From Candidatus Syntropharchaeum butanivorans (GTDB taxonomy: Archaea > Halobacteriota > Syntropharchaeia > Syntropharchaeales > Syntropharchaeaceae), in NCBI GenBank assembly GCA_001766825.1, contig LYOR01000001.1, positions 30,945 through 94,944 on the forward strand: a stretch of 64,000 nucleotides of DNA, in the 5' to 3' direction. The translations under genes were made by a program, and so were the position numbers. Shown here piece after piece: positions 40,831 through 62,152 of this stretch. The notes under the pieces were generated by a model. That model saw nothing but the letters and a program-made list of their open reading frames with translations. It searched no databases and was not told the origin of the DNA. How positions within the stretch are numbered: position 1 is the first letter of the stretch; each line of letters begins with the position of its first letter.

Positions 40831-40885
40831 CTTCTACCCTTTTAATGATTATAATTGCCCTCAAAAATATAAGGGTGTGGGACGA

Positions 40886-43554: not shown

Positions 43555-43602
43555 ATTTTGATCCAAAGCTTATTTAAGTAAGGCGTGAGTTGAGGTACAA
43601 CT

Positions 43603-44844: not shown

Positions 44845-45052
44845 GTACTGCCTTTAATGGTTTTGTCCAGTTGAAAACCCATCAACCATAAATGGGTAAC
44901 GAAGCCCTACCTGTGATGGGTATTTCAGATTGAAGCAGGAGGGGATCGAGGAGAGGATAAATGCAAAAGGTGCCAGATGCTTCGGTGGGGAGGAAAGAGC
45001 ATTCGTTTGTGTTCAGGTAACTTTTATCAACCTCTGAATATAATAAAGATGT

Positions 45053-45340
45053 ATGCCAGATCAAATCTCACCCCCAGATCCTGGATACGAAGGTTCAAGG
45101 TTTCTTGCATGGCTATCAAAGCATGGAGGCATTCAGAATTTAAAAAGCTGTAAAAGCAAATGTGAACAGCTCGGGTTAAATATTGACACAATCCTCAGAG
45201 AATGGGGCACAGAGCGTATAAGGATCAATTTAAGCAGGGGAGAAAAAGTGGTTGTTTTAGTAGATAAGGTGTGGGCAGGTCAGTGGACAAGATATTATGA
45301 CACTTTTATTCCCCACCACAGACACTGGAAAAGAATATAA
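45053..45340 (+). CDS. hypothetical small protein in AT-rich islet
   Basis: 95-aa ORF in a low-GC stretch. No recognisable motif, so the coding call is weak. Confidence 0.2.
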   Translation: MPDQISPPDPGYEGSRFLAWLSKHGGIQNLKSCKSKCEQLGLNIDTILREWGTERIRINLSRGEKVVVLVDKVWAGQWTRYYDTFIPHHRHWKRI

Positions 45341-45400
45341 TTTTTCAGTTACCGAAAAGATTTAATACAGTTATGAAACATATCTACATATCTAATATAT

Positions 45401-45922
45401 ATGGTGATTATGATGAGTGAAGAGACTCCCCGGCTCCCAGAGGAACTGGAAAGGTATGTGGATAAGCCATACGGCGGCATCTTTGGGGACTCTGTAAGGA
45501 TAAGAATCATCGAGGAGATTGTAGCAGATCCTTACCGCGACTACCGCCCGAAAGACTTTGAAAAAATGTTTGGGGCTTCACCACCTACCATCAGAAGAGT
45601 TCTCAATGACCTTACGGCGCTTGGCTTACTTATAAAGGATTCACGCGATGTACAGCACCCGGTTTATCGCCCGAACCTGCGATCAAAGAAGATTATTGCA
45701 CTGACGTTTCTGGCTTATGCAGTAGTAGATGATAGAGACCACACGAAACTCATGGATGAAGCTATCTGGGATTACTACTCTAAAGTACTGAAAGAGGAAT
45801 TTGAACCTCTTGCAATTGCCACTACCCTGAGTTACGAAAATACAGGCAGAACCTGGAGAGGTTTTAGTGATATTAAGAGTATCACCGAAGAAAGCTGTAT
45901 CCTTGCAGTAGCGGAGGCCTGA
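45401..45922 (+). CDS. winged-helix transcriptional regulator, hypothetical
   Basis: 173 aa. N-terminal wHTH-like segment (RIRIIEEIVADPYRDYRPKDFEKMFGASPPTIRRVLNDLTALGLL) plus C-terminal domain. Confidence 0.45.
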   Translation: MVIMMSEETPRLPEELERYVDKPYGGIFGDSVRIRIIEEIVADPYRDYRPKDFEKMFGASPPTIRRVLNDLTALGLLIKDSRDVQHPVYRPNLRSKKIIALTFLAYAVVDDRDHTKLMDEAIWDYYSKVLKEEFEPLAIATTLSYENTGRTWRGFSDIKSITEESCILAVAEA

Positions 45923-45926
45923 GCTG

Positions 45927-46259
45927 ATGGAACATGAGGAAGGTGAGGAACGTACTCCTGAGAAAGGGCACATACGGGTCGCAATTGATCTCAGGAGTTT
46001 GTATGAATTCGATCCAGAGGATGTGTCAGTAGATATCTCTGTTGTACGTTACTCTAACCTCGCATATATCCAGGTTTCACATCGAGATGTTCATATCGAT
46101 TTTCTGGAGATGCCTGGCATCAAAAAAGACGGTAAAACTCGCATCAATGGAACACGGATTTATATGTCCCATGCGGCGGCTCAGAAGCTTGCCAGGGAGT
46201 TAAACGAGGTTTTAGAACGGGTTCATTCCAGCGGTGGGATGGAGAAATACCAGGGCTAA
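45927..46259 (+). CDS. hypothetical protein, co-oriented partner of the regulator above
   Basis: 110 aa, starts 5 nt after the previous stop. No motif I can name. Confidence 0.4.
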   Translation: MEHEEGEERTPEKGHIRVAIDLRSLYEFDPEDVSVDISVVRYSNLAYIQVSHRDVHIDFLEMPGIKKDGKTRINGTRIYMSHAAAQKLARELNEVLERVHSSGGMEKYQG

Positions 46260-46422
46260 AACCTTTTTCTATCACAAAATGTCAATCCTCGTAAGTTTCA
46301 ATTTGTTTGTGTTTAGGTAGTATGTAGGTAAGTAGGTAGGTAATATTGTTGAATTAAGAATATTTTGACATAAAGCTTATATACCGTAAAATCAATGTTG
46401 GGGATAATGGAGGTGAGAATAT

Positions 46423-46614
46423 TTGACTGAAGAGCGTGCCATTGTCAGTGTTATTGTTATTGTGGGGATTCTATTATTATTTGCATACACTCTTTTTCAA
46501 CTGAGCAAGTATGCAGATATGATGGCCGGGGCCTTTAAGAGTGTTGCACTCCTCGGCGTGGTTGCAGTAGTAGCCATAGCTGCGGGTATTGCACTAAAAA
46601 GGATGGTTAGTTAA
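46423..46614 (+). CDS. small single/double-pass membrane protein, hypothetical
   Basis: 63 aa, two hydrophobic helices (VIVIVGILLLFAYTLF, ALLGVVAVVAIAAGIAL). Confidence 0.3.
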   Translation: MTEERAIVSVIVIVGILLLFAYTLFQLSKYADMMAGAFKSVALLGVVAVVAIAAGIALKRMVS

Positions 46615-46939
46615 GTCACTCGGAGAAGAGGTAAAAAAAGGTTAACGCAGAGATGGCTGTGGTAGTAGTTCCACCAAACCACTTTATCACCGAACCTCAC
46701 TCCCGGCAACCCCCTCAAACGGCCTCTGCAGATCCAATCCCCTCATCCATCTTGCTTACAGGCTCGATGAGCTCCTGTTTACTCATCTGGCATAGCATCT
46801 GGTGATGAAGTAGCGTATCGCGGCTTTGTTTTATCTGAGATGGGGGATTGATCAGGTAACTTCCCTGCGTTTTCTACCCCACGCTTGAACTCGTGGACAT
46901 GGATGAATAAAAAGAAGAGGGCTTTAAACCTGGTGATCT

Positions 46940-46952
46940 AAGCCGCTGGTGG
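46940..46952. repeat. attL-type direct repeat: 13-nt copy of the tRNA-Thr 3' end
   Basis: aagccgctggtgg is identical to 58380..58392. That copy is the 3' acceptor strand, discriminator and part of the T-stem of the tRNA-Thr gene. Chance expectation for a 13-mer in 64 kb is ~0.001. Confidence 0.6.
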
Positions 46953-47049
46953 ACATGTTAAAACCACACCATAAGCTTGCCACTACCCCGTTATTTTCCA
47001 TCAATAAAAAGGTTGTGGTTTAATACCGATAATCCATAAGGATATAATC

Positions 47050-47205
47050 ATGGAAGGCTTAAAAAGATATCGGGTGCATGAGGTCAAGGGATCACTCAAG
47101 GTATCGCTGCCACGTGTGCTTGCTCAGGCTGTGGGTATCAGGAAGGGGGATGAGGTTGTGTGGGTCATCACGAAGGAAGGTTTGACCCTAAAGAAGATTT
47201 CTTGA
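47050..47205 (+). CDS. AbrB/MazE-type (SpoVT-AbrB swapped-hairpin) small DNA-binding protein
   Basis: 51 aa MEGLKRYRVHEVKGSLKVSLPRVLAQAVGIRKGDEVVWVITKEGLTLKKIS. This is the looped-hinge-helix pattern (KxSxxGxxxIPxxxR..GxxxGDxVxV). Below the ORF-track cutoff. Overlaps the antisense ORF 47124..47645. Confidence 0.45.
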   Translation: MEGLKRYRVHEVKGSLKVSLPRVLAQAVGIRKGDEVVWVITKEGLTLKKIS

Positions 47206-47645
47206 GTTAAATCCTGTCCTCTTCCATCCAATAAAGGACATACTCCACATAACCCCATACTCATCCGGTGCTTTCTTGGACAGGGTTGACCTGTCCACAC
47301 ATCAAAGAGGACAAAGGGGTTACCTGCCTTTGCCTTCTCCCACTCCTTCTTTATCTCTGGATCCTGCTTTGCTACCTCAAGGATCTTCTTAGCCTTCTTC
47401 ACAGTCTTATCTGAGATGAGTAAGCCCTGGTCTCTGGCTTTTTTGACTGCTAACTCAATGGATCTTCCTTTGTCTTCGGTGGGGGGTTCTTGACCCACCA
47501 CCGAACTTTTGAAGAGAGGTTTACCATTTTTATCTTTACCTGCTAATTGAGTAGCCTCTTGCCTCCTCCTTGCTCTCTCCTCCTCAATCTCTGCAAGCTT
47601 AAGGACAACTTCGGCTTTCTGTGCTGTGGTGAGGTGTCTTCTCAT
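47124..47645 (-). CDS. basic DNA-binding-like protein (ParB/KorB-type HTH resemblance), hypothetical
   Basis: 173 aa. N-terminal LTTAQKAEVVLKLAEIEEERARRRQ..KTVKKAKKILEVAK. The C-terminal third has low complexity and overlaps the AbrB-like ORF, so the 3' end may be mis-called. Confidence 0.35.
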   Translation of the reverse strand: MRRHLTTAQKAEVVLKLAEIEEERARRRQEATQLAGKDKNGKPLFKSSVVGQEPPTEDKGRSIELAVKKARDQGLLISDKTVKKAKKILEVAKQDPEIKKEWEKAKAGNPFVLFDVWTGQPCPRKHRMSMGLCGVCPLLDGRGQDLTQEIFFRVKPSFVMTHTTSSPFLIPTA

Positions 47646-47943
47646 AATGCCTCAAAAATGGCATATTTTTCACACCTCAGGTATCATAATACCCCCTCCC
47701 CTTCGAGATGCTCGAAAAACCCCTATTTTGAGGCTGTGGGTGGAGCAAAAAAAGTTGTCAAGGAGGTAACCGAGAGGCAAGCTTATCATTGCTCCACCCA
47801 CGATGGCACACAGCTCCCTTATTCCGGGCGGTTGCCCCGCAGCACAGGCTGCCACACCAGTGGTATTCAACCGCTGTTCATGGCGCTTGTTCTTACGCGG
47901 CATGGATGCCAACCCTCACGCCCACCAATGGATTAAGTGTGAT

Positions 47944-48288
47944 TCACACTGATTCGCCGCCGCCACCGAGGCCCCTGATGCTATAGATGATGATGCCTGC
48001 CATCAATGCAATCACCACGATGAGCATCATAGCCCACCCAGTGTTCATGACAGAAACGACCTTCTGTGAGGCTGTGTAAAACTCGCTGCTCTGGTCAATT
48101 GAAGCGATGTCATACACCTGATCGGCGACATAAACAGAGATCGCGCCGATGATCACGATGGTGAAGAGAACCATGCCAATCGTTGATACACTATCAACCT
48201 GCGCGCAGTGATCCTGCATGAACCTTCTTGCCTCAGCCTTTGCCGCTTCCATGATAAGCCTGCACCTGTCAACTACATGACCAAGCAT
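47944..48288 (-). CDS. two-helix membrane protein, hypothetical (element-encoded)
   Basis: 114 aa, two long hydrophobic helices, GGGGESV tail. Confidence 0.35.
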   Translation of the reverse strand: MLGHVVDRCRLIMEAAKAEARRFMQDHCAQVDSVSTIGMVLFTIVIIGAISVYVADQVYDIASIDQSSEFYTASQKVVSVMNTGWAMMLIVVIALMAGIIIYSIRGLGGGGESV

Positions 48289-48373
48289 ATCTGTTTCACC
48301 TCCATTAACACGATTAAATATTATCCATTACTATTTAAACCTACTCCTCTCTCGAATCAACTTCACACACAAT

Positions 48374-50083
48374 TTATCTACGATTTTTTGTTCTTTTTCT
48401 TCTTCCCGACTTCACACCGAGCATCTCCAATGGTGTGGCAACCGGGGCCACTTCCCCGAACCCGAATGCCCCGAGGTATGTGGATATATCCTTCTTTTTC
48501 TGCTTCCTGGGCTTCCGCTTTTTCGTTGGTGGCCTCCCCGGTGGTTTTTGACGTGGGGTGAACGTGACTGGCTCAATCCTCATATCCGGAAGATACAAAA
48601 CACGCGGGCGTGATGTCACCGCCTGCCTGACCTGCCTGAAAACATCAGCAAGCGGCTTGCTTTGCGCTTTGGTTTTGCTTGATGTCTGGGTTTTTGTTTC
48701 TACTGTGGGGGTAGATACAACCTCGATGATGGATTGAGTTTTTCCCTCCCCCTGTGGGGTTTCCTGTCCTGTAGTTTCCTGCCCTGTAGTTTTTCTTGTG
48801 AATGATGGTACAGGTATTGTTGGTGTCTTGCCTGATGCGCGTGCTTTGAAGCGGGGTGTGCCTGCAGCGCCAAGCATACCCATAAATGTTTCAATACCGC
48901 CACGAGCCGGTATGCGTGGCTTGGGCTTTGACTCGATGACCATCTTTTTAGCCCTGGGTCGTTTTATATCTTCAACAACAGACTTTGCAGCCTTATTCAC
49001 ATCTTGCCCAACTCTCTCAAAAATATCCCTGAGTCTGGCTTCTCTGATCATCGATTCAAGCCCACGATCAAGCTCAAGTGTCTTGACCCTCCTTGTGGCT
49101 GTTCGTGTTTCTGTTCGTGTCTCTGTTCGTGATTTAAATGCAGTGGCCGGCTTCCGTGTCCTTCTGTATGCAGATTTACCAAACCTATTCATCCACCTCT
49201 CCTGTGGGGTCTCCCGCCCTGTGGTCTTTTTCGGGCGTTCGTGTACAGATTTACCAAGCTTATCTGCCCATTTCTTAAACTCAGAAGGCTTTGGCTCAAA
49301 CCCAAACAGCTTTTTCAAATCCGGTGTGAGCTCAACAAAGTAATCCCCGGGTATTGCCTTACCACCCCATCCAATCTCAGGACGCCTCACCCCGCCTATC
49401 TTCTCTCTGAACCGTGGGAGATAGGGTTTCTCAGTAAACACACTATATCGGGGCTTTGCACCAAAGTATATGCCCTGGCGTGGTTTATGTCCGACTCTAA
49501 GCTTTCTGTATCCATATCTCACAGCATGAATCTGGGGTCTCTCGAACCTGGCTTCCTCATAAAATGGCTTGACCAGCTCAAAACCCCACGCTGGCTTCGT
49601 CTTTGGTGTGAAAGGCTGTACAGTACCACCCTTACCCTTTGGTGTGTCACTTATCCCTATTAGGGAGCCTTTTCTTGCACCAGTACCACGTGGCTCAAAT
49701 TGTTTGAAGGTTTCTTTTCCAAGGAAATACCCCTTCACATCTGCGAGTTGTGACATGTATTTCTCATAAGCGGCGATATTCCCAAGTGATACTTCCTTCT
49801 TCGTGGTTTCTCCAATCCTGTATATGTCACCGGAGACCTTCGTGGTTTTAGTTGACACCTTAACACTTTTTACCACAGGTTTTGTGCCAAACACAAGGGC
49901 TTTGTAATCCACTTTAACCGGTTGCCCTTCCTCCATGATTCTCGAAAACTCGGTTTTTCCAACCAGCGGCTTGCTTTTCGATCCCCACCTGATACCCAGA
50001 CCTTCATATTCAGGTGTTGTGATTCTGACCGGCTTTGGTGCATGCTCAACAGCCTTTCCCCCTACCTTACCAAAAAACCACAT
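48374..50083 (-). CDS. very basic repeat-containing protein, hypothetical (virion/nucleoprotein candidate)
   Basis: 569 aa, Lys/Arg/Pro/Gly-rich. Internal tandem repeats RTETRTETRTATRR and TTGQETTGQETPQ, matching DNA repeats near 49100 and 48770. C-terminal KKRKPRKQKKK. Confidence 0.5.
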   Translation of the reverse strand: MWFFGKVGGKAVEHAPKPVRITTPEYEGLGIRWGSKSKPLVGKTEFSRIMEEGQPVKVDYKALVFGTKPVVKSVKVSTKTTKVSGDIYRIGETTKKEVSLGNIAAYEKYMSQLADVKGYFLGKETFKQFEPRGTGARKGSLIGISDTPKGKGGTVQPFTPKTKPAWGFELVKPFYEEARFERPQIHAVRYGYRKLRVGHKPRQGIYFGAKPRYSVFTEKPYLPRFREKIGGVRRPEIGWGGKAIPGDYFVELTPDLKKLFGFEPKPSEFKKWADKLGKSVHERPKKTTGRETPQERWMNRFGKSAYRRTRKPATAFKSRTETRTETRTATRRVKTLELDRGLESMIREARLRDIFERVGQDVNKAAKSVVEDIKRPRAKKMVIESKPKPRIPARGGIETFMGMLGAAGTPRFKARASGKTPTIPVPSFTRKTTGQETTGQETPQGEGKTQSIIEVVSTPTVETKTQTSSKTKAQSKPLADVFRQVRQAVTSRPRVLYLPDMRIEPVTFTPRQKPPGRPPTKKRKPRKQKKKDISTYLGAFGFGEVAPVATPLEMLGVKSGRRKRTKNRR

Positions 50084-51615
50084 TGCTGCAAGATCACCGG
50101 CAAGCTCAAAAACTCACCCGGCTCTCCCCTGAGCTTCTCTGGAGCTGTTTTAACCCACTCTTTTGTGCTTGTCACAACCTCCTTGCCTGCTGCAACCGGC
50201 CCCTCTGTTACCGCAGTCTCTGCAAGTGCCCCCAAACCAACCACATCGCGCGTAAAAGCAATCGGGAACATCACCATTGATTCCGGTCCTGCACTGTGCC
50301 TGTATTTCTTCTCCCCCCATGCCTCAAGCTTGAGTACGGCCTTATGGAACGGTCGTTTTTCCTTCTCTATCTCCTTTTCAAGGGCTTCTTTTCGTAGCTT
50401 ACGCTCATGTAATTCCTTCTTCTTTGCCTCCTGCTTAACAATATACTCACGTGAATACCCGATGAGTTCGCGGTACCCCGGTGGTAGTACCTTTATCTCC
50501 TTCGGTATTTGTTCAGGGGAGGCTGTCACACGTGCTGGTGGTTGATAATATTCCATTACAGTGGGTGATGTCTCCTTCTGCTTCCCTGCCTTTTTATACC
50601 ACTCAGGTGGAGTGGTTGTCACACGTGCTGGTGTTGGGGATGGAAGGGGTTTGCCGGAACCTATTACAATATCCTCAAAACTCAGATACCCTTTCTTTTT
50701 AGGCTGCTGCTGCTTTTGTGGCTGTGGTTTTGGCTTTGGCTTTACCGGCTCTGTCCAAGTTGCTATAAGCTCATTTTGCTTGCCAAGTGAGAAGGAAAAA
50801 GGTACATCAGCGGGTATGAGCTTCTTCACATTCTTCGCAGCCTGCTCATAAGCCTGCCGGATGGATTTTGCCACAGCTTCAAACTCCTTGAGCCTACCAC
50901 CGGCCCATGCAGGAGCCTTGATGCCATATTTTTTACCACCAAACTCAACTTCTGTCCTGACCTGCTTTGCAACACGTGATGGATAATCACCACGCTCAAG
51001 CTTCCATTGAAGTATGCCAAGATACTCAGATTTGGTAGGAGGGTTTGGAAGTGGTACAAAGGTTGGCTTGCCATGCTCCCACAGCACAGTACCCCATTTA
51101 TAGCCAAGTGCTCGTGCAACATCAGGTGGGTTTGCAGCAGCACCCATCATCTGTACCTTGCCATCCTCAATCTTAACCCACATGCCGCCTGAGTGGGTTT
51201 GGGATGGCTTGATGGGGGGTCTTCGTTGTGTGGGTGTTCCTGACTCCGGGATATAGAGAATACCATACTTTGTTTGAACCTGTTTGTACCACGTGCCGCT
51301 GAGCTTTATCCTGCCCATTGGCTTTCCTCTGCCGGCCCTGTACTCCTTCATCATCTTCTCTTTTCGCTCACGCTCCCGCCGGATTCTCTTCCTCCTCCTT
51401 CTCTCACGTTCTGCCTTCTCACGTGCAATTCGCTGCTCAATCTCCCTCCTCTTCCTCTCAAGCTCTGCCTGCTGCTCTGCACGATATCGCTTGAGGGCTT
51501 CCTCACGCATGAGTGAGGGGTAGATGGGTATATCACGCTGGATATCTTGCTTCAGCTTCTGGTATTCGGATTCGCTCAGTTTCATGATATCTCCCTCAAC
51601 ATTCAATCTCCACAT
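50062..51615 (-). CDS. basic coiled-coil protein, hypothetical (element-encoded)
   Basis: 517 aa. N-terminal charged helix (KRYRAEQQAELERKRREIEQRIAREKAERERRRRKRIRRERERKEK), PKPKPQPQKQQQPKKK linker, second helical region. Overlaps the previous gene by 22 nt. Confidence 0.5.
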   Translation of the reverse strand: MWRLNVEGDIMKLSESEYQKLKQDIQRDIPIYPSLMREEALKRYRAEQQAELERKRREIEQRIAREKAERERRRRKRIRRERERKEKMMKEYRAGRGKPMGRIKLSGTWYKQVQTKYGILYIPESGTPTQRRPPIKPSQTHSGGMWVKIEDGKVQMMGAAANPPDVARALGYKWGTVLWEHGKPTFVPLPNPPTKSEYLGILQWKLERGDYPSRVAKQVRTEVEFGGKKYGIKAPAWAGGRLKEFEAVAKSIRQAYEQAAKNVKKLIPADVPFSFSLGKQNELIATWTEPVKPKPKPQPQKQQQPKKKGYLSFEDIVIGSGKPLPSPTPARVTTTPPEWYKKAGKQKETSPTVMEYYQPPARVTASPEQIPKEIKVLPPGYRELIGYSREYIVKQEAKKKELHERKLRKEALEKEIEKEKRPFHKAVLKLEAWGEKKYRHSAGPESMVMFPIAFTRDVVGLGALAETAVTEGPVAAGKEVVTSTKEWVKTAPEKLRGEPGEFLSLPVILQQCGFLVR

Positions 51616-51868
51616 TAAAATATGCAGATCTCTTATAAAACTGTTTGGTGTGTGATTTACAATTCAAAAAATGAAAAAAGAGGGTGATAATCCCCCTCAA
51701 GTGTATATTTCCACACCACAATCGTCTAATTTCTCCCTTACAAAGGGAGAACCCCGCAGCCGCTCCATAATCGTCTCAAAGATCGAAAACGCTGCATTCA
51801 AGTCATTGTCCTCGATCTCGATTGCAAGCACATCCTCGCCGATTGAAAGCTGAATCCTGGCCATTCAA

Positions 51869-52084
51869 TCATCCTCCTGGTAGATTGCAATCAGGATGAT
51901 GTATTTGGGTTTTTTTCCGGAGCATCTCTCGAAGCTCGGCGTAGGCTTCACGTCTCTGCTGCCCATTATTATGCTTCCCCGGGGGCGCATAAGTCTGAAG
52001 TTGCTCCCATGGACTGCAATTCTCGCAGAATTCGGTGCCGGCCGTCGGACACCCGCAACAGAAGCACCATGTGTCTTTCATCAT
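51869..52084 (-). CDS. small zinc-finger protein (element-encoded)
   Basis: 71 aa with CFCCGC, CENC and a C-terminal HHPDC. Confidence 0.35.
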   Translation of the reverse strand: MMKDTWCFCCGCPTAGTEFCENCSPWEQLQTYAPPGKHNNGQQRREAYAELREMLRKKTQIHHPDCNLPGG

Positions 52085-52548
52085 CTTCTATCACCTCCAT
52101 TAAAGCTAAAATCATCTTTCTCCTGGGGTGTCTTAATGTTAAAATGATGCTTTAACATTAAGACCCTCTCTCCTTCTTCTGTGAGACAGACCTTTTTGAT
52201 CTGTGGTCTCAAAATCTCGATATGTGGGTAAACACACCCTTTTTTTGTTTTAAATTCCAATTTTACAAGCCCCTTTTCTTCCAAATTTCTGAGCGACCGG
52301 CTAAAACTCACAGCAAAGCTTGGGATGTGACCCCTCCCATAGGCAAGTGCAGCAGCCGTTTTCAACCCTCTGTAATTGAGTTCCCCACCACTATCATTGA
52401 GAATCTTTAGAATTACAAGCTGTAACCTACTGAGTCTTCTATCTGGCTTGGGTGGGTTTTCCTCCTCGTTTCTCATCTTTTCCATTAAATCGAGGAAGAG
52501 GAGGTCAAGAGGAGTTTCCCCCCGATCTTTTTCTCTCCGTGGCCACAT
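52081..52548 (-). CDS. winged-helix DNA-binding protein (element-encoded)
   Basis: 155 aa. LSRLQLVILKILNDSGGELNYRGLKTAAALAYGRGHIPSFAVSFSRSLRNLEEKGLVKLEF has a MarR/PadR-like wHTH pattern. 4-nt overlap with the upstream gene. Confidence 0.45.
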   Translation of the reverse strand: MWPRREKDRGETPLDLLFLDLMEKMRNEEENPPKPDRRLSRLQLVILKILNDSGGELNYRGLKTAAALAYGRGHIPSFAVSFSRSLRNLEEKGLVKLEFKTKKGCVYPHIEILRPQIKKVCLTEEGERVLMLKHHFNIKTPQEKDDFSFNGGDRR

Positions 52549-52552
52549 CCAT

Positions 52553-52834
52553 CTACCCCCTTACTTCCGACGCATCATACGTTTTAATGCATCGAAGGGA
52601 CCAGTCAAACGCTTTAACTTGGCCTATACCATGACTGGCAAGCACATACCCTTTAGGCGGGGATCCTTCGAGAACCCAGAGTTCCACCCTGTAGTTATCC
52701 TCTTCGTATGAGTCCGGTGGACTCGCTCTTAACCACGCTCGTGATGTTTCATCCTTCCCTTCATATCGTCTGACTACGACCCGCTTTGCCTTTTCAATCA
52801 GTTTTTTCATTGTTTCCTCATACATTAACATCAC
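52553..52834 (-). CDS. hypothetical small protein (element-encoded)
   Basis: 93-aa ORF immediately downstream of the replication gene; no motif I can name. Confidence 0.3.
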   Translation of the reverse strand: MMLMYEETMKKLIEKAKRVVVRRYEGKDETSRAWLRASPPDSYEEDNYRVELWVLEGSPPKGYVLASHGIGQVKAFDWSLRCIKTYDASEVRG

Positions 52835-55775
52835 CTCCGTTCAAATCCGTGAAAATCATACCGAGAGCGCTACGGAGGGTTAGATCATTTGGATCTCTCT
52901 TGAGAAGGCCTAACAGCTGCAACTGGCTTGTCGCAGCCTCAATGAAGCTGTCCCGCTTTTTGTTGTTCAGGAGCTGCTTGTTGTGTTGTATGAAGTCTTT
53001 GAGCTTTCGTATTATTGTGTTGAGGTCATCGGTGCCGGTGATTGGATCAGCAATACCCCGACCCTTAAGGGTATGCATTTCTGCGTCCGGTTCGTCCACT
53101 TCGCCCGGGCCGGACGCACCGGGCGCAAAGGACGCAAGATTGACATTACTAAGGGGGTGGGGGTGAGAGTGATTATTGTTACTCTTTTTATAGATGTTGA
53201 TGAATCGCTCTCCTGACTTCCCGCGCTCAATCATCACTCCAATCGCTGCAAGGTTGGTCTTAAGCCGTTCAAGCTCCTCTGAAAGCCCTTTGGGCGAGCC
53301 TTTCCACTCCCTCGATCGTCTGTCCACCCCAAGCTCTTTTGCCTTAAGATTGAAAATCTGTAACAGCTCGCTTGCCGTCCCCTGCCACTGCCGTTCACCA
53401 TCCAGGAAGTTGTGTCTGATCCCCTCCTCATTAATGTAATATCTATCGTTAATCAACGCAAGCAATACACTCCCCATTATCGAGCTCTCAACGACCCGGA
53501 TATTGTCGTCACCCTTCGAGCTCAAATAATCCTCCAAGAATGTTCCTGCCTCATAACCAAGCGCTCTCAAACACGCTTCGCCCACCTCTGCGTAGTCAAA
53601 CATACGTACCTCACCCGGGATCCTGATTTTTTCGCTCTTGAGTACCCTCAGTGTCTTTGAAAGGAGATCGAGAAGCGCACCGAAGAGCTGTGGTTTTGTT
53701 GCTTCAAACACCTGTTGTAGTCCTCGCTCGCTCCTGTTATCCTCACGCCTCGTCAGTTTGAAAAATAAGCTTCGATCCACCACATCTGGCCGGTATAGTG
53801 GAATTAATATGCCGTTCAACACGATAGCCCGCTTGTAATTGTAGATCACTTCATCCTCGTCTGTATAAAGTGCCCGCTTTGTCTCTCCTGCCCCCGTGAC
53901 AGCCCTTGCGAGGACGTCTGACTGCCAGTCCCTGATCATACCCTCATTATCGAAAACTGCACAGTAATGGTGGAATAACGCAATGATCATGTCATTATCC
54001 CTCGTTGGCATCCTGAGTGTTTCAGTTTTCGATGGATCAATCAAATCTTTAATCCATTTGGAGAATGTGGTTTTTCTGGAACCGTGCTGACCGTAAAACA
54101 CTATAATCGGTCTTGGAATCTCCGGGAAGAAGTATGAGATGACCGCTGTGAGGAGAAGCCGCCTATCTCGCTCGTTTTCAATCGTGAAAAAGTCCCAAAG
54201 CCGTTCAATCCTACCACCGTGCTCCGGTCTCGCCTGTGGTCGTTGATGCTGTTCTCTTCTGAAAAGAATGGGTGGATCTGTGGTGATTCTCCACCCGCTC
54301 TCATCAATCTCAATAACCTCACCGGCCTCGTTTGCAAGGTCGTAATAGATCTTGCCGTTAAACTCACCGATCCTGTTCCACAGGTAGAATTGGCTGCCGT
54401 CAAACCTCGCAATGCCCGACAGGGTTGTTGTTGCCGTCGTCAACGCTTCATTACTCAATGTTTTTTGTTCGGCTTCCCACCACACCCGAGCGAGCCACTC
54501 TTTAAATTCACGTGATCTGATCCTCAACGCCCGTGTTCCCTTTTCGTTTTCGATGATCGCATGTGGTTCGTCGTATTGATCGCAACCGATTCCTTTGAGA
54601 AGACTCAGGGCGAGAGAAACGAGTCTGTCGTTTTGAGACTTTGGCTTTGAACCCCCTTCCTTGGTCGATTCTTCGCTTTTTGTGTTTTTCCTTTCCTTAC
54701 ACAGCTCACAGAGATGACTCACAAGAGAAGCGCAATCCCGCTGTATCGTTGCACACCTGTGAGGCCGTATCCCCCTCACCCTGGTCCGATCAATGTGTGA
54801 TTGTGTGACCGCCGAATCATAATCTGCCTGCAGTTTGAAGACCTCGTGAATCTCCTGATCTGTATATCCTGCTGCAACGAGCTCAGCAACCAGCGCAAGC
54901 CTGAAATGATGCCCATCTCCGCCTGTGAGCTGCCAGCGCTGCTCTATCGCCTGTTTAAAACACGGGCGTAGCTCCCCTTTCACCTCTGGTGGATTTGCGG
55001 GCTGTACATCTCTCTCAACCTCAAGATTCAGGATATAATCTCTCAATCGCTCATCTTCACTTCTCACAAGTGGATCAACAGCATAAGAAAGCCTGTGCGG
55101 TCTCTCTGGTGTATCCTCCCCCTTTATCGATCTGGTGCCGATCACCTTGATGATGCGCGGTAAATCACCGATGTTATCGATCTCTGCGCGATCGTTCTCA
55201 AACTTCTCTTTGATTAGCTTCTGGAATGCCTGGAGCTTTGCCTGTACCGCTTCCCTGTTCTCATCGTCAAGCTCGATGGGTGGAATTCCTGACCATAGCT
55301 GGAAGCCGTTGCCGCTCATACACTTGATGGGTCTATGGAACCCCTGAGACTCAAACCACTCGATGATCTGATCTGCAACCTCCTCAGCCTTCTCAAGCTC
55401 CTCATCCGTTGCTGGCTGCTTGCTGTCTGGTCGTCTCGCATCAACATCGATGATCGATGCATTCACAGCTGCTATATCCTCAGCCCTCCCCCTTCGCTGC
55501 TTTCGTGGATTGATACCGACATAGACGTTATAATCACCATTAAGCTGCCTGCATCGATCTACAAAGTCATCCTCGTCCTTCACAAAGTAAATTACTGGCT
55601 TCTTCTCCCCGTTCGGATCGATTCCTCGGATCTCGGTGAGTGATTGGTGTGCTAAGAATCGGTAGACCTGTCTGACAGTCAGAGCATCAAACTCTAAGCC
55701 TCCGTGTGCTGAATCGAAAGGCTTAAGTATGCTGGTATCCGGAGATGTATTTGTAAAGCTCTCATCTTTGTCCAT
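52818..55775 (-). CDS. replication protein: archaeo-eukaryotic primase-polymerase (PrimPol) domain fused to D5/SF3-type P-loop helicase
   Basis: The ORF runs to 55865; the likely start is MDKDES. N-terminal PrimPol block YVGINPR..ASIIDVDAR (acidic DxD). Middle Zn/primase-C region (CATIQRDCASLVSHLCELC). C-terminal Walker A VFYGQHGSRKTTFSKW and Walker B-like CAVFDNEG. Confidence 0.7.
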   Translation of the reverse strand: MDKDESFTNTSPDTSILKPFDSAHGGLEFDALTVRQVYRFLAHQSLTEIRGIDPNGEKKPVIYFVKDEDDFVDRCRQLNGDYNVYVGINPRKQRRGRAEDIAAVNASIIDVDARRPDSKQPATDEELEKAEEVADQIIEWFESQGFHRPIKCMSGNGFQLWSGIPPIELDDENREAVQAKLQAFQKLIKEKFENDRAEIDNIGDLPRIIKVIGTRSIKGEDTPERPHRLSYAVDPLVRSEDERLRDYILNLEVERDVQPANPPEVKGELRPCFKQAIEQRWQLTGGDGHHFRLALVAELVAAGYTDQEIHEVFKLQADYDSAVTQSHIDRTRVRGIRPHRCATIQRDCASLVSHLCELCKERKNTKSEESTKEGGSKPKSQNDRLVSLALSLLKGIGCDQYDEPHAIIENEKGTRALRIRSREFKEWLARVWWEAEQKTLSNEALTTATTTLSGIARFDGSQFYLWNRIGEFNGKIYYDLANEAGEVIEIDESGWRITTDPPILFRREQHQRPQARPEHGGRIERLWDFFTIENERDRRLLLTAVISYFFPEIPRPIIVFYGQHGSRKTTFSKWIKDLIDPSKTETLRMPTRDNDMIIALFHHYCAVFDNEGMIRDWQSDVLARAVTGAGETKRALYTDEDEVIYNYKRAIVLNGILIPLYRPDVVDRSLFFKLTRREDNRSERGLQQVFEATKPQLFGALLDLLSKTLRVLKSEKIRIPGEVRMFDYAEVGEACLRALGYEAGTFLEDYLSSKGDDNIRVVESSIMGSVLLALINDRYYINEEGIRHNFLDGERQWQGTASELLQIFNLKAKELGVDRRSREWKGSPKGLSEELERLKTNLAAIGVMIERGKSGERFINIYKKSNNNHSHPHPLSNVNLASFAPGASGPGEVDEPDAEMHTLKGRGIADPITGTDDLNTIIRKLKDFIQHNKQLLNNKKRDSFIEAATSQLQLLGLLKRDPNDLTLRSALGMIFTDLNGGDVNV

Positions 55776-55783
55776 ATTTTTTT

Positions 55784-56035
55784 TCACCTCCCCACAATCC
55801 TCACACCGTTGTGAGGCACGATTTGGACCAACCCTGCATTCTCCATCGCGGTGAGGAGATCCCACACCTCGCCCCTTGTGAGCCTGAAATAAGGTGAAAG
55901 AATCCTGTAAACCTCACCGAAGCGTATTATGCCTGAACGTGTCCTGTTTTTTGCTTTTTCGTCAAGTAGCTTAGTTGCTTTTACCAGGAACTTCGGTACC
56001 TGCTTCTTTTCCTCGATGAGAACTACTGGATCCAT
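55784..56035 (-). CDS. small winged-helix DNA-binding protein (element-encoded)
   Basis: Start set at MDPVVL, with GGAGG 8 nt upstream on the coding strand. IIRFGEVYRILSPYFRLTRGEVWDLLTAMENAGLVQI is a wHTH-like segment. Confidence 0.45.
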   Translation of the reverse strand: MDPVVLIEEKKQVPKFLVKATKLLDEKAKNRTRSGIIRFGEVYRILSPYFRLTRGEVWDLLTAMENAGLVQIVPHNGVRIVGR

Positions 56036-56088
56036 GTAGGGTTCCTCCTTCTTTTTTTCCAACCTCTTCCAACCATTTCCCAAGAAAT

Positions 56089-56256
56089 TCAAAGACTCGC
56101 TGCATCCTTTTCACCTTCTGTCATCTCGAGGATCTTTCTCATCCCAGCTTCAATGAAAGCGCTCCGGGATATTACTCCGTTCCGGGTCTGTCGTGCGCGG
56201 TCAATCTTCTCAAGCACCTCGGGACTCATCGCGATGTTTACTATTTTGCGGGTCAT
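56089..56256 (-). CDS. ribbon-helix-helix (CopG/Arc/MetJ-type) regulator (element-encoded)
   Basis: 55 aa MTRKIVNIAMSPEVLEKIDRARQTRNGVISRSAFIEAGMRKILEMTEGEKDAASL. Beta-strand then two helices, RHH pattern. Below the ORF-track cutoff. It is the first gene of the minus-strand replication operon. Confidence 0.5.
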   Translation of the reverse strand: MTRKIVNIAMSPEVLEKIDRARQTRNGVISRSAFIEAGMRKILEMTEGEKDAASL

Positions 56257-56330
56257 GTTTCAAACCTCCAATTTCTACAACAAAAATGGGGAAACTTATA
56301 TATATGTGTTAATAACAAATAGTTTGTTAG

Positions 56331-57125
56331 GTGATCGAAATGCCAACGAAAACGACTCTTGAGAATATCTTAGACAAACCCAATATCCTCAAAATCCTTT
56401 GCTCCTGGGAGGGTAGGAAGGAAGAATGGCTCAGATGGAGTGAAATCAAAAAACAGACAGGTCTGGTAGATGTTGAGGTCAGCCGGGGCTTAAATGCGCT
56501 TGTTAAATTCGGGCTGCTTGAAAGAAAACTTAAGGGCAGGACTGCCTACTACAGACCGACCTTTGAGTTTATCAGAGAAATACTCAGATCCAGTGATATC
56601 GGCTTTATCAAAAAATTTCCGAAAGAAGAGATTGATCCTGGTCCCTTTGATCCTGAAAAAGGCTATTCCTCGACTATTTATACAATTCTTCCAGACCTTG
56701 ATAAGCACGAAAAAACGGAAATAGAAGAGAAACTCTCAGAGGTTTTTTCAGCCCTTGACTCTTTTGCAGAGGTGCTGAATCAAATCTTCATGAAAAAGTA
56801 TCTCACGGATCTCTACGAAAGCCTTGAAGAGAACCTCGCTGAAGTAACTGAAAAAGAGAAGTGGTTATATGAGCTGCTCGATCCGGAATCAAAACTATAC
56901 GACCTGCTCGCGGGATCAGAAAAAAACAGGAAAGGAGAGATATACAAAAAACTCATTGATATCTGTGTGGCGATGGGGCTGGAACCAACGCCCGATAACA
57001 TCGTGGCGCTTGTCCATCATATTTTTAATGCGAGAAGGAGGTATTCTTATCCCCTTGGTATCGTGTGGCGATATCAGTTTGATCTTGAGAAGCAAATTAA
57101 GAGGAGAGCTCGGGAAGGAATCTAA
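56331..57125 (+). CDS. winged-helix protein (possible element regulator), hypothetical
   Basis: 264 aa. N-terminal WLRWSEIKKQTGLVDVEVSRGLNALVKFGLLERK wHTH; acidic helical C-terminal domain. Divergent from the RHH/Rep operon. Confidence 0.45.
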   Translation: MIEMPTKTTLENILDKPNILKILCSWEGRKEEWLRWSEIKKQTGLVDVEVSRGLNALVKFGLLERKLKGRTAYYRPTFEFIREILRSSDIGFIKKFPKEEIDPGPFDPEKGYSSTIYTILPDLDKHEKTEIEEKLSEVFSALDSFAEVLNQIFMKKYLTDLYESLEENLAEVTEKEKWLYELLDPESKLYDLLAGSEKNRKGEIYKKLIDICVAMGLEPTPDNIVALVHHIFNARRRYSYPLGIVWRYQFDLEKQIKRRAREGI

Positions 57126-58318
57126 AACTCAAAGAGGTCCTCCTCTCCTCTTTCCTTTACTACATTAAAAAACAACCTCTTCACGTCGGGATGTTTTTCA
57201 GCCAGCTTTTCAAGGAATGCGATCAGGACGTCTTCAAACCTGTCTTCCCTGCTGTAATCTCCATCCAGGGGCAGGTAACACCTCTTACAAAACCGCACAC
57301 CCGGCTCATTCACCTCACCACACCGCGGGCATTGGTCAGGCTTGAAAGCCGTTCCGTTCTTCCTCTTCTCATCCCTAATACCGTGCATTGCAAGAAGCGC
57401 ATCATCCACGTCCCGCCCGCTCAGGTGGACATACACCGCCGCCATCTCCGATGACTGTTCCCACCCAAAACACTCTTTCATTTGGGCCTCTGTCAGGTGA
57501 GATGCAAGGTGTGTTGCCCGTGCATGTCTGAAAGAGTGTGGATTTACCCGCTTCTTAACCCCTGCCTTTTTAGCAAGCTGCCTCAATGTCCTTGCTACAA
57601 AACCGTAGCTTAAATGCTCATTCTTCCACTTCGGGTTGTTCGGTGTCGGTATCTTCCTCCAGAGGTAAGCTTCTGGATCGTCCTTCATGGGATGCTCCTC
57701 TATCCATGCCTGAAGAGCCGGTACCGACGTGATCAGTCTCACCCTCCTGCTCCCAGTCTTCCCGTGCACATGCAGGACCGCACCATATTGATCAAACTCC
57801 AGGTGCTTGAGTCTGAGTGGCAGGAACTCCCCGATCCGGCAACCTGATTCATATAATGCAAGCACGAAAGCACGATCCCTTGTGTTGTATGCCACACCAG
57901 CCATCGCCTTGATCTCCTCCTCTGTCAGGATCTCATCAGGAAGTTTTGAGCCTGTCCTCACCGGCTTGATCTTCAGATCCTCAACAAGATCATCCTTCCC
58001 GATAAATCGCAGGTACTTTCTCAGGATGACCTTCTTATCATGCTTGGACCACTCCGAAAAATCACCCATCTCAATTGAGAGGATGAGCCGCCTGATGTCA
58101 TCCTCACCTGCCTCCCTGAATGACTTGCCAAGCTCCCTTGACAGTGGGCGTAGAGTGAATAGATATTTGAGCAGCCTGGATGACCCGATCCCATCCATCA
58201 TCGCGCTCTCACAGAACCGCCTCACATCCTCCCTGTCATCAGGATGTATGCCCTCGAGAATCTCCTCAAACTTCTCTCTAAACAGCTTATCCTGCTTATG
58301 TACATCTGCTTTAACCAT
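57122..58318 (-). CDS. tyrosine recombinase / integrase with C-terminal zinc ribbon
   Basis: 398 aa. Catalytic signature R..(RIGE), HSFRHARATHL (HxxR), AAVYVHL (Tyr nucleophile). A C-terminal CPRCGEVNEPGVRFCKRC zinc ribbon. Lies 62 nt from tRNA-Thr. Confidence 0.75.
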   Translation of the reverse strand: MVKADVHKQDKLFREKFEEILEGIHPDDREDVRRFCESAMMDGIGSSRLLKYLFTLRPLSRELGKSFREAGEDDIRRLILSIEMGDFSEWSKHDKKVILRKYLRFIGKDDLVEDLKIKPVRTGSKLPDEILTEEEIKAMAGVAYNTRDRAFVLALYESGCRIGEFLPLRLKHLEFDQYGAVLHVHGKTGSRRVRLITSVPALQAWIEEHPMKDDPEAYLWRKIPTPNNPKWKNEHLSYGFVARTLRQLAKKAGVKKRVNPHSFRHARATHLASHLTEAQMKECFGWEQSSEMAAVYVHLSGRDVDDALLAMHGIRDEKRKNGTAFKPDQCPRCGEVNEPGVRFCKRCYLPLDGDYSREDRFEDVLIAFLEKLAEKHPDVKRLFFNVVKERGEEDLFEF

Positions 58319-58379
58319 ATCAATCCGTCCTCTGCCTCCATCGGATATATATGGCAGAGGCTTATGATGTGGTTAAAAC

Positions 58380-58392
58380 AAGCCGCTGGTGG
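58380..58392. repeat. attR-type direct repeat (within the tRNA-Thr 3' end)
   Basis: aagccgctggtgg is identical to 46940..46952. Confidence 0.6.
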
Positions 58393-58452
58393 GATTCGAA
58401 CCCACGACCTGCTGATTACGAGTCAGCCGCTCTTCCACTAAGCCACAGCGGC
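58381..58452 (-). tRNA. tRNA-Thr (anticodon CGU)
   Basis: Reverse complement: GCCGCTGTGGCTTAGTGGAAGAGCGGCTGACTCGTAATCAGCAGGTCGTGGGTTCGAATCCCACCAGCGGCT. 72 nt. Acceptor GCCGCTG/CAGCGGC; anticodon stem GCTGA/TCAGC with loop CTCGTAA; T-arm GTGGG-TTCGAAT-CCCAC. Confidence 0.85.
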
Positions 58453-59418
58453 AGGAGGAATAAGCTCCACCCAGACTCCTCGATCCTCCTTCTTCGCGAG
58501 ATTATAAATAAGTTCTGCGGTTGCAGCATCCTGGATCGCAAGACCCGTCGAGTCAAAGAGTGTGATCTCATCAGCCCGGACCCTTCCAGGCTTCTTACCT
58601 GCAACAATCTCCCCAAGCTCAGCCCAGACGTGGTCCCGGGAGATGATCCCCCTCTTTAACGGAACGTTTATCTCACCACCGTTTGACGCCTGTTCGATCT
58701 CATCCACAACAACTTTTGCATCCTGAATTATTCTGGGATCAAGCTCCTGCTTACCGGGTGCATCAGACCCAATGGCATTGATGTGTGCCCCTTCACCGAT
58801 CCATTCCCGCCTTATGATCGGTTTTCTGGCGGGTGTAGTTGTTGAGAGGATGTCACATGCTGAGACCTCCTCAAGCGGTGCATAAACGATATTGTACCCT
58901 GAAGCATCTCTTTTAAGCTGCTGCATTTTCTCCTCTGAGATATCATATATCTTCACAAGATCGATATCAAAGACCTCAGATATCGCCAGAAGCTGTGACC
59001 TTGCCTGGACTCCACATCCCACAAGACCGAGTGTACTTGAATCGTTACGTGCAAGGTATTTTGAGGCAACGGCAGATGCAGCCCCGGTCCTGTACGTTGT
59101 AATGAGTGTTCCATCCATCACTGCAAGCGGGAAACCGGTTCTGGCATCATTCAGTATCACAACCGCCATCACAGTCGGATAACCACGGTTCTCTGGATGT
59201 GAGTTGACCCACTTGAGGGTTGCACATCTTCCGATCCGGGCAGGCATCGCCCTGAAATCCCCAGAAAACTCAGGGAGATCGAGGTAAACCTTCGGTGGCA
59301 TCCTGCACAACCCTTCTTCAAATCCTCTGAATGCGTTCTCAACAGCCTCGATTACCTTCTTCATCTCGATAAGGTCTTTGATATCCTTATGCATAAGTAT
59401 GAGCGTCTCTTCCCTCAT
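58438..59418 (-). CDS. ornithine-cyclodeaminase/mu-crystallin family protein (archaeal alanine-dehydrogenase-like)
   Basis: 326 aa. Rossmann LGLVGCGVQARSQL and the OCD_Mu_crystallin fold. The last 5 codons overlap the 5' end of tRNA-Thr. Confidence 0.7.
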   Translation of the reverse strand: MREETLILMHKDIKDLIEMKKVIEAVENAFRGFEEGLCRMPPKVYLDLPEFSGDFRAMPARIGRCATLKWVNSHPENRGYPTVMAVVILNDARTGFPLAVMDGTLITTYRTGAASAVASKYLARNDSSTLGLVGCGVQARSQLLAISEVFDIDLVKIYDISEEKMQQLKRDASGYNIVYAPLEEVSACDILSTTTPARKPIIRREWIGEGAHINAIGSDAPGKQELDPRIIQDAKVVVDEIEQASNGGEINVPLKRGIISRDHVWAELGEIVAGKKPGRVRADEITLFDSTGLAIQDAATAELIYNLAKKEDRGVWVELIPPAAVA

Positions 59419-62149: not shown

Positions 62150-62152
62150 CTT

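Follow-up and report, generated by a model that had tools for sequence, protein, structure and literature searches.

An integrative element at a tRNA-Thr gene of the butane-oxidising archaeon Candidatus Syntrophoarchaeum butanivorans, with precise empty sites and a probably virus-derived cargo

Among archaeal mobile elements, plasmids of the pRN1/pSSVi type exemplify the combination of an integrase with a primase-helicase from the AEP (archaeo-eukaryotic primase) superfamily. AEP primases have been reported in elements that are bounded by direct repeats, mostly at tRNA genes, and PriCT/PriL iron-sulphur (Fe-S) domains have been linked with the primases of mobile elements (Kazlauskas et al. 2018, PMC5862659). 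Topoisomerase VIII (Topo VIII) is restricted to plasmids, whether free or integrated, and one of the copies listed is that of Candidatus (Ca.) Syntrophoarchaeum caldarius (Takahashi et al. 2020, PMC7671362). In the literature that we searched, this Topo VIII gene was the only part of a Syntrophoarchaeum mobile element to be noted, and we found no description of the element treated here or of its cargo protein family. We analysed a 64-kb window of the butane-oxidising archaeon Ca. S. butanivorans (contig LYOR01000001.1; "the window" is the whole stretch of 64,000 nucleotides, to which all coordinates refer unless another contig is named) and found that positions 46953-58392 are occupied by an integrated element. 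The element is of a well-known kind, that of archaeal elements which integrate at tRNA genes and encode both a tyrosine integrase and a primase-helicase. We propose, as a reading with somewhat better than even prospects, that it consists of an integrative plasmid-type backbone with a virus-derived, decaying cargo fragment and is not an autonomous virus.

The boundaries of the element are set by three features, namely the two attachment (att) cores and the tRNA gene:
46940..46952, no strand: attL core, the left copy of a 13-bp direct repeat at the tRNA-distal junction, an exact repeat that merges with the right copy into one in genomes with an empty site.
58380..58392, no strand: attR core, the second (right) copy of this 13-bp repeat, identified as an exact repeat and by its position as the 3' end of the tRNA-Thr gene.
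58381..58452, minus strand: tRNA-Thr(CGU), the integration target (attB), full length despite the insertion (ARAGORN; Rfam RF00005).

Comparison of the left and right junctions reveals an identical stretch of exactly 13 bp, AAGCCGCTGGTGG, which has no further exact copy in the window. With up to one mismatch allowed, 0.08 matches to it are expected by chance, and three or more matches were seen in none of 100 shuffles, which disposes of the concern that the 13-mer might be a common genomic word. The tRNA is recovered at full length by both ARAGORN and Rfam (73.6 bits, model positions 1-71), and given its span the right repeat comprises the 12 terminal nt at the 3' end of the tRNA and one further nucleotide. 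A preliminary description of this DNA, made from the sequence alone, had noted both exact copies and the tRNA-Thr 3' end, and every open reading frame (ORF) that it named is present where it was placed.

Proof of insertion comes from related genomes in which the same locus is empty. When species-representative genomes were scanned with the ornithine-cyclodeaminase-like neighbour gene, a third species was retrieved, Syntrophoarchaeum sp. 12019_3 (contig L008), where the genes for glycyl-tRNA synthetase, an amidohydrolase, the ornithine-cyclodeaminase-like protein and tRNA-Thr are followed directly by the genes that lie to the left of the element in the window. Window positions 62133-58380 align to L008 7282-11039 and 46952-46686 to L008 11027-11340, the overlap being exactly the 13-bp core. 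An exact-protein look-up of the flanking DUF3467 gene further yielded three near-identical assemblies (L104, from Logan SRR7787535; L105, GCA_011052865.1; L106, from Logan SRR3679449), in each of which window 35927-46952 (99.93% identity) is fused to 58380-64000 (100%) via a single copy of the core. Because these assemblies and L008 all join the flanks through one core, the insertion can be defined as 46953-58392, or 11,440 bp. The earlier proposal of a site-specific integrated plasmid or provirus at tRNA-Thr with 13-nt att repeats is thus fully borne out by precise empty sites, and membership of the gene cluster in a conserved chromosomal core is ruled out. We regard it as almost certain that integration at the tRNA-Thr 3' end was carried out by the element's own tyrosine integrase.

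The empty junction (L106) and a contig of the element (L108, identical at 100% to window 47074-54849) were both recovered from one run, SRR3679449, so that occupied and empty states coexist in the material of that run. Between the occupied allele and the three empty-site alleles, all 5 substitutions and both indels fall within 46786-46878, a stretch of about 95 bp beside attL, and at these variant positions the occupied allele matches the other species. As the flanks are otherwise 99.9-100% identical, the insertion or loss must be very recent.

Just inside the cores, and once within the element, further att-related sequences are found:
46962..46976, plus strand: left terminal inverted repeat AACCACACCATAAGC, 9 nt inside attL (15-mer repeat search).
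58360..58374, minus strand: right terminal inverted repeat AACCACATCATAAGC, 5 nt inside attR (15-mer repeat search); the S. caldarius copy differs by 1 nt.
58329..58360, no strand: inverted repeat CCTCTGCC-N16-GGCAGAGG around a TATATAT box, read from the sequence, between attR and the integrase start; kept in the S. caldarius element.
49958..49977, plus strand: third att-like sequence TCCAACCAGCGGCTTGCTTT, inside the 569-aa ORF of a split gene, with 18/20 positions matching attR and inverted relative to attL and attR.

The 15-mer AACCACAYCATAAGC has just two occurrences in the window (chance expectation 0.14), one inside each end of the element and in inverted orientation; the two terminal repeats differ at one position. 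The left repeat is probably an integrase-binding site of attP, and in a circular form the two would flank the core as an imperfect palindrome, the layout expected for the integrase-binding sites of attP. The inverted repeat around the TATATAT box may constitute the promoter or operator of the integrase gene. The third att-like sequence is the sole other match in the window at up to three mismatches, and none of 100 shuffles gave any; it lies near the point where the similarity of the split gene to its intact homologues fades, and it may represent a pseudo-att site or the breakpoint of an old recombination.

Two large genes form the core of the presumed backbone:
57122..58318, minus strand: tyrosine integrase of 398 aa, intact, with a C-terminal zinc ribbon (PF00589).
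52818..55865, minus strand: replication protein, a 1015-aa ORF annotated as 989 aa (SBU_000103, 100% identical), assigned by an AlphaFold2 (AF2) fold match, profiles and homologues.

The integrase beside the tRNA, named as such in the preliminary description, belongs to the tyrosine recombinases (PF00589, E 2.1e-20, 73.6 bits against a cutoff of 27.1 bits) and retains a complete catalytic set, located by motif, of R161, K187, H261, R264, W286 and Y296. Its C-terminus bears a CxxC...CxxC zinc ribbon (Cys330, 333, 344 and 347), with zinc-ribbon families matching residues 323-347. The protein is related to XerA (NCBIfam NF040815, 97.5 bits, E 9e-28); we reject it as a XerA orthologue, given that this score lies under the curated 220-bit cutoff and that the C-terminal zinc ribbon is additional. 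Nor is it an integrase of the gene-splitting SSV type (type I, with attP inside the gene), because the ORF is unbroken and 61 bp separate its start codon from the upstream att core. An intact gene with the att site outside it is one feature of the pNOB8-type (type II) integrases, which are defined by sequence clustering as well, and this one feature is present here.

The layout of the replication protein comprises an AEP primase domain (residues ~60-290), a Cys-rich helical region resembling the C-terminal domain (CTD) of PriL (~300-392) and a D5-like superfamily 3 (SF3) helicase (~410-900). The protein by itself has no Pfam match at E 0.01. The AF2 model of residues 1-440 (19 homologues; predicted local distance difference test, pLDDT, 79) matches the RepB' primase, the CAPP Prim-Pol, LigD-Pol and PriS with a probability of 1.0 and E values of 3e-7 to 1e-3. 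The primase motif residues are D140, D142, SGNG184-187, D230 and D234; the acidic motifs show conservation, and in motif II, SGNGFQ, a Gln replaces the His of SGxGxH. The modelled fold places the N-terminal part in the AEP superfamily. In the Cys-rich region NCBIfam PriL models match residues 269-379 far under their cutoffs (E 2e-4 to 4e-3) and phrog_9660 matches residues 300-389 (E 9e-10); the helices at 301-393 are modelled at pLDDT 74-90, and Cys302, 371, 378, 386 and 389 are present. These weak matches fit a PriL-CTD/PriCT-like, candidate Fe-S domain. Homologues of the replication protein carry PF19263 (DUF5906), PF08706 (D5_N) and PF03288 (Pox_D5), the family profile matches the SaPI5 primase-helicase 7OLA (E 1.9e-7, profile positions 471-784), and a Walker A motif lies at 592-599. 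By this homology the C-terminal half is assigned to the D5-like/DUF5906 SF3 helicases, and the earlier label of a 1015-aa PrimPol-SF3 helicase agrees with both the AEP fold match and the helicase homology.

The element resembles the described AEP-bearing elements in its integrase, in the att repeat at a tRNA 3' end and in a single primase-helicase with a PriCT/PriL-like domain; it differs in that its protein has no detectable sequence membership in the named primase families, in the SGNGFQ motif and in the unusual zinc ribbon of the integrase (PMC5862659). The helicase half matches 31 plasmid records, with the free plasmid pH6Ac described below among them, as against 4 phage records. When IMG/VR was searched with the replication protein, the primase alignment and an alignment of the large basic protein described below, nothing emerged other than two marginal 65-aa primase matches.

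The closest relative of the element is found at tRNA-Thr in Ca. S. caldarius (LYOS01000002.1, contig L001, around SCAL_000570), a species of the same genus that is present in the same enrichment culture and the same sequencing run. The two elements share the tRNA-Thr(CGU) target and the 13-bp core, and the adjacent arm and hairpin are near-identical. Identity amounts to 85% for the integrase, 75% for the replication protein and 63% for a small winged helix-turn-helix (wHTH) protein, the flanking host genes being 62-76% identical. Beyond the replication gene the S. caldarius element instead encodes an 859-aa Topo VIII (HATPase_c and TOP6A Toprim) and other genes that are unrelated to the four small genes and the virus-like cargo of the present element, and the gene opposite its integrase is unrelated to the 261-aa regulator described below. 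No Topo VIII gene occurs in 46953-58392, and the element is accordingly not itself a Topo VIII-encoding plasmid. We also note that after Topo VIII the sister contig continues (L001 13306-22826) with three unannotated genes, then a gene for a DUF499 protein and a PglZ-domain gene, a BREX-like defence pair.

Two further systems bear on the backbone. On an unrelated Logan contig (L003 6256-17992; SRR21359517 contig 38), genes for a tyrosine integrase and for a 1170-aa protein related to the replication protein are joined by an 878-aa Topo VIII-like gene, a combination that suggests a wider family of integrase/primase-helicase/Topo VIII elements. The pairing of this backbone with Topo VIII in both the sister element and L003 is the main reason for calling it plasmid-type. 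The free plasmid pH6Ac of Methanothrix harundinacea 6Ac (NC_016637.1, 11,991 bp) is similar in size to the element, encodes a ribbon-helix-helix (RHH) protein and has a 1124-aa ORF whose homology to the helicase half extends over 497 aa at 28% identity (E 6e-59), but it has no annotated integrase and no other genes in common with the element. The statement in the preliminary description that the gene repertoire matched no nameable virus or plasmid family was therefore too strong, since the backbone is shared with the Topo VIII-bearing S. caldarius element and the helicase with pH6Ac.

The left arm of the element has a different character:
47124..47645, minus strand: 173-aa basic protein, whose 3' end overlaps the AbrB gene on the opposite strand; residues ~82-112 are 87% identical over 31 aa to L088:19-339.
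47944..48288, minus strand: 114-aa protein in which hydropathy windows at residues 28-41 and 76-92 mark two hydrophobic helices.
48374..50083, minus strand: C-terminal half of a split gene, 569 aa, isoelectric point (pI) 10.6, SBU_000097 (alignment to L090; C-terminal motif).
50062..51615, minus strand: N-terminal half of the split gene, a 517-aa ORF, pI 9.9 (homologues; long single ORFs in L088-L090).
50106..50112, minus strand: site of the 1-nt deletion that splits the large gene, minus-strand sequence GAGTTTTTG^AGCTT (junction alignment).

The two largest ORFs had been described as separate, extremely basic proteins. Their basic pI values stand; alignment to homologues shows them to be one gene split by a 1-nt deletion, and not two proteins. 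The 517-aa ORF, which probably starts at Met11 (position 51585) to give 507 aa, begins with a coiled coil followed by a conserved 130-aa domain and has 15 homologues, mostly of 1249-1910 aa; for the 569-aa protein, a search of 5.8 billion clustered proteins brought back its own record and no other. Scanning of metagenomes turned up closer relatives on virus-like contigs, designated L088, L089, L090 and L006 (Ga0180301_10000255, Ga0136651_10003938, Ga0190338_1000020 and Ga0434945_004805, respectively), of which L088-L090 carry these relatives. A single 965-aa ORF of L090 aligns to the 517-aa protein (62%) and then, by its residues 775-885, to residues 389-508 of the 569-aa protein (60%). The 517-aa protein is 75% identical to its L088 and 73% to its L089 counterpart, in both of which the ORF continues beyond 865 aa. 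At its C-terminus the 569-aa protein has a poly-Lys run followed by TYLGAFGFGEVAPVATPLEMLGV, a motif that matches the C-termini of the large homologues, and the family member P0052 matches both the 517-aa and the 569-aa proteins. At the junction the homologues read PGDFLEVMTDIASMWALGKVGAKA, where the window has PGEFL in the 517-aa frame and then ELAGDLAAMWFFGKVGGKA in the 569-aa frame; the same split-site sequence is carried by the independent Logan contig L108. The 22-nt overlap of the ORFs contains a perfect slippery heptamer (T_TTT_TTG, 50071-50077, minus strand) at which a -1 shift would enter the 569-aa frame. Programmed -1 frameshifting is nonetheless the less parsimonious account, because the homologue alignment places the frame change ~36 nt upstream of the heptamer, at the deletion site.

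Across the family (P0040-P0053) the large basic proteins range from 443 to 1910 aa, with a common N-terminal domain and long, low-complexity and highly variable centres. Most full-length members also have a short C-terminal motif in common, in which a poly-Lys/Arg run precedes an aromatic-rich segment that ends in ...P..E(L/M)(L/F)G; it corresponds to 48374-48500 in the window. For the 517-aa protein AF2 gave a poor model (pLDDT 56), which had no match better than E 0.06 in BFVD or PDB; a tblastn search of INPHARED with the 517-aa and 114-aa proteins likewise returned no match.

The hydropathy of the 114-aa protein agrees with its earlier description as a two-helix membrane protein. The protein itself has no significant Pfam or PHROG match. 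Its homologues in L088 and L089 are 72% identical and lie ~5 kb upstream of the gene for the large basic protein, and the L088 homologue matches phrog_11172, a 'virion structural protein', at E 0.0015. It is thus a candidate virion or membrane protein. In the 173-aa protein, homology to the L088 gene stops mid-gene, after 'KAKAG', which points to a probably truncated or recombined gene. The ParB-like label that this protein had been given is dropped, as no match was found in Pfam (E up to 0.01), PHROGs, NCBIfam or PADLOC. The preliminary description saw no recognisable capsid fold in the two large basic proteins, and no protein of the element yielded a capsid fold or a viral family match.

Three proteins link the virus-like contigs to the element: the large basic protein (62-75% identity within its N-terminal 500 aa), the 114-aa protein, at 72%, and the 173-aa protein, of which a part is shared. 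They differ in that the large gene is one ORF within a module of at least 13 genes, and none of them has the backbone of the element. This conserved, unannotated module (L006 1-12399 and L090 1-12651) encodes, besides the large basic protein as one ORF, 1) a glycosylation-rich spike-like protein with a C-terminal anchor; 2) several two-helix membrane proteins, one of them with a pilin-like SPVIG motif; 3) a DnaA-like ATPase (phrog_5484, E 3.8e-13); 4) a 1255-aa DUF2341/CarboxypepD_reg adhesin. No counterparts of the ATPase, the spike-like protein or the adhesin occur in the element. L088 has its own minimal tyrosine recombinase of 182 aa, consisting of the catalytic domain alone (343-891; PF00589, E 1e-16), and a 515-aa glycosyltransferase of the PMT_2 type. 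Contigs of the L006/L090 type are absent from IMG/VR and INPHARED, and their module probably represents an undescribed archaeal virus group. A DnaA-like AAA+ ATPase is a core gene of fuselloviruses. Lacking a counterpart of this ATPase, the element departs in its accompanying morphogenesis and replication genes from the spindle-shaped viruses, whether Fuselloviridae-like or Itzamnaviridae-like. The capsid proteins of spindle-shaped archaeal viruses are small, alpha-helical and highly hydrophobic; such viruses have been described for ANME-1, the sister order, and the virus-like contigs are possibly spindle-shaped like these (PMC9894754).

In light of the known working of the tyrosine integrase family, we propose the following mechanism. 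A circular form of the element would carry an attP consisting of the core between the imperfect inverted repeats (GCTTATGATGTGGTT ... AACCACACCATAAGC), reconstructed as ...GGCAGAGGCTTATGATGTGGTTAAAAC-AAGCCGCTGGTGG-ACATGTTAAAACCACACCATAAGCTTGCC... The integrase would bind these repeats and recombine attP with the identical 13 bp at the end of tRNA-Thr (attB), duplicating the core and restoring a full-length tRNA. The free element would replicate by means of the single large protein with its AEP primase, PriL-like domain and D5-like helicase. The backbone would be made up of the integrase, the replication protein and the small DNA-binding regulators that flank a divergent promoter. The cargo arm (~47310-51615), which comprises the genes for the two-helix and large basic proteins and a portion of a third, would derive from a virus-like element, this being the direction of transfer that we infer, and would by now be partly decayed, the large gene having been split by the 1-nt deletion and the third gene losing its homology part-way.

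Several points weigh against this picture of a plasmid-type backbone with decaying cargo. Among the Logan contigs we found no contig or read across the attP junction of a free circle; L108 and a second contig, L109, end 120 nt and about 150 nt short of the element ends, and exact look-ups of the integrase and the AbrB protein for attP-spanning contigs returned no match. The cluster of single-nucleotide polymorphisms (SNPs) and indels at 46786-46878 is equally consistent with two co-existing strains that show no current activity and with active excision. The comparison by which the two sister elements have the same backbone and different cargo is incomplete, since the far end of the sister element was not found, there being no second copy of the core or the inverted repeat within 15.5 kb in the 22.8-kb locus. 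The frameshift is known from one read set and might be population-specific, and the split gene may still work, because both halves keep start codons and Shine-Dalgarno-like motifs. Finally, the 72-75% identity of the cargo to genes of virus-like contigs and the phrog_11172 match leave room for the lifestyle of a virus or satellite. One form of the latter would be a self-replicating plasmid-virus hybrid, functionally like pSSVx/pSSVi of Sulfolobus, that has kept a few virion genes (those for the two-helix and large basic proteins) and is packaged by a helper virus of the L088/L090 type. The plasmid-type backbone, the nature of the cargo as a subset of a larger virus-like module with 72-75% identity to L088 and L089, the small size of the element and the occurrence of occupied and empty sites in one culture would all suit such a hybrid; however, no helper virus genome is shown in the same culture, the frameshifted large gene and truncated second cargo gene look more like decay than selection, and the resemblance to pSSVx is one of analogy only. 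We consider the hybrid unlikely. A bolder version, in which the hybrid is active, integrates into and excises from tRNA-Thr in the Butane50 culture and is packaged by means of the two-helix and large basic proteins, alone or with an L088/L090-type helper, the third att site serving as a second integrase substrate that rearranges the element, appears to us slightly less probable again; were it true, the two-helix and large basic proteins would define a new family of archaeal virion proteins.

No better placed than the simple hybrid is a complete small provirus of a new spindle-shaped or pleomorphic archaeal virus, with the 114-aa protein as major capsid or membrane protein and the large basic protein as an internal DNA-binding or terminal virion protein. 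This takes up the suggestion of the preliminary description that the basic proteins may be virion components of a novel archaeal virus. The architecture of the 114-aa protein does fit the capsid proteins of spindle-shaped viruses (PMC9894754), its homologue has the virion PHROG match given above, and the relatives of the large protein lie in virus-like contigs beside two-helix proteins, the DnaA-like ATPase and the DUF2341 adhesin. Yet the ATPase, spike-like protein, adhesin and further membrane proteins of that module are missing from the element, its large gene is split, none of its proteins gave a capsid fold or viral family match, the related contigs are absent from IMG/VR, and the sister element combines the same backbone with the plasmid marker Topo VIII and none of the cargo genes. 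More doubtful is the view that the element is a defective, immobile remnant whose presence or absence merely marks two strains. Gene decay, the SNP cluster between occupied and empty alleles and the failure to find an attP-spanning contig agree with it; on the other hand, both 13-bp cores are perfect, the terminal repeats agree at all but one position, both the integrase and the replication protein are encoded by full-length ORFs with intact catalytic motifs, and the otherwise 99.9-100% identical flanks indicate a very recent insertion or loss. We give hardly any credence to a chance repeat, mis-assembly or binning artefact that joined plasmid DNA to the chromosome. The genome is metagenome-assembled, and when the same runs are assembled by Logan the element comes out on separate contigs, but a 13-bp overlap is too short for an assembly join, the junctions are those expected from attP x attB, the repeat is non-random, and the sister species has the same junction by the same tRNA in a 410-kb contig.

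On the preferred reading, that of a plasmid-type backbone carrying a decaying virus-derived fragment, the element would exemplify a plasmid backbone that exchanges its cargo, Topo VIII in one case and a virus structural fragment in the other, between two co-cultured species. The analysis also brings to notice a new, uncharacterised protein family, made up of very large basic proteins from virus-like contigs, and it leaves the understanding of how such elements work unchanged. We know of no genetic tools for short-chain-alkane-oxidising archaea. Given its defined att sites, intact integrase, single-protein replication module and apparently coexisting alleles, the element is a candidate starting point for an integrative or shuttle vector in these organisms.

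The remaining features of the element are regulators and small genes:
47050..47205, plus strand: 51-aa DNA-binding protein of the AbrB/MazE (SpoVT/AbrB) type at the left end (PF04014, E 6.4e-7, 29.7 bits, above cutoff).
51697..52834, minus strand: four small genes, for a 55-aa acidic, a 71-aa Cys-rich, a 155-aa possible wHTH and a 93-aa protein (ORFs with Shine-Dalgarno-like motifs).
55784..56092, minus strand: 102-aa basic protein, possibly wHTH, with 63% tblastx identity to L001 9682-9975 of the S. caldarius sister element and no Pfam family match.
56089..56256, minus strand: 55-aa RHH-like protein, a weak assignment (PF01402, E 0.0075, below cutoff).
56257..56339, no strand: AT-rich divergent intergenic region with a TATATATA box, read from the sequence (local GC 0.43), between the RHH gene and the 261-aa regulator gene.
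56340..57125, plus strand: 261-aa protein (264 aa from an upstream GTG) with an N-terminal Csa3-type winged helix (PADLOC Csa3 wHTH, E 4.1e-7, residues 10-83).

The AbrB-type protein was correctly recognised in the preliminary description, its Pfam match being above cutoff. The MazE/AbrB domain raised the possibility of a MazEF/AbrB toxin-antitoxin module; no toxin ORF adjoins it, the neighbouring ORF on the opposite strand having no family match in Pfam or PADLOC, and the protein is better read as a stand-alone regulator because an adjacent toxin ORF is absent. In the divergent region the wHTH part of the earlier description is upheld by the Csa3-type match, while the RHH part is weak, its match falling under the Pfam cutoff. 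The intergenic region itself may act as a bidirectional promoter, and the 261-aa wHTH protein is a candidate element-specific regulator. Among the four small genes, the 155-aa product has just weak Csa3/CARF-HTH matches (E 0.008-0.04), and the zinc-finger assignment of the 71-aa product has its Cys pattern and nothing beyond it in its favour. A tblastx comparison of these four genes with the sister element L001 and the virus-like contigs L088-L090 gave no match. PADLOC defence-system models returned matches of the wHTH type only on the proteins of the element, and no CRISPR arrays were found in the window.

About 650 bp to the left of attL lies a 1.4-kb block (44914-46288) with a 95-aa ORF, a 173-aa ORF and the DUF3467 gene, whose GC content of 0.43 contrasts with ~0.50 in the host. 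Its identity to Syntrophoarchaeum sp. 12019_3 (L008 11323-12685) amounts to 96.8%, where the surrounding host DNA is 70-79% identical, and this suggests either a recent inter-species exchange or an unusually constrained block by a tRNA hotspot. No degenerate older att copy was found to the left of the element that would bound this block. Elsewhere in the window, at 4419-4584 on the minus strand, Rfam detects a full-length tRNA with a long intron (45.9 bits) that was missed by ARAGORN. The intron holds a C/D-box sRNA (RF01133, sR3, 59.6 bits, 4464-4544); a C/D-box sRNA within a tRNA intron is the arrangement of archaeal pre-tRNA-Trp.

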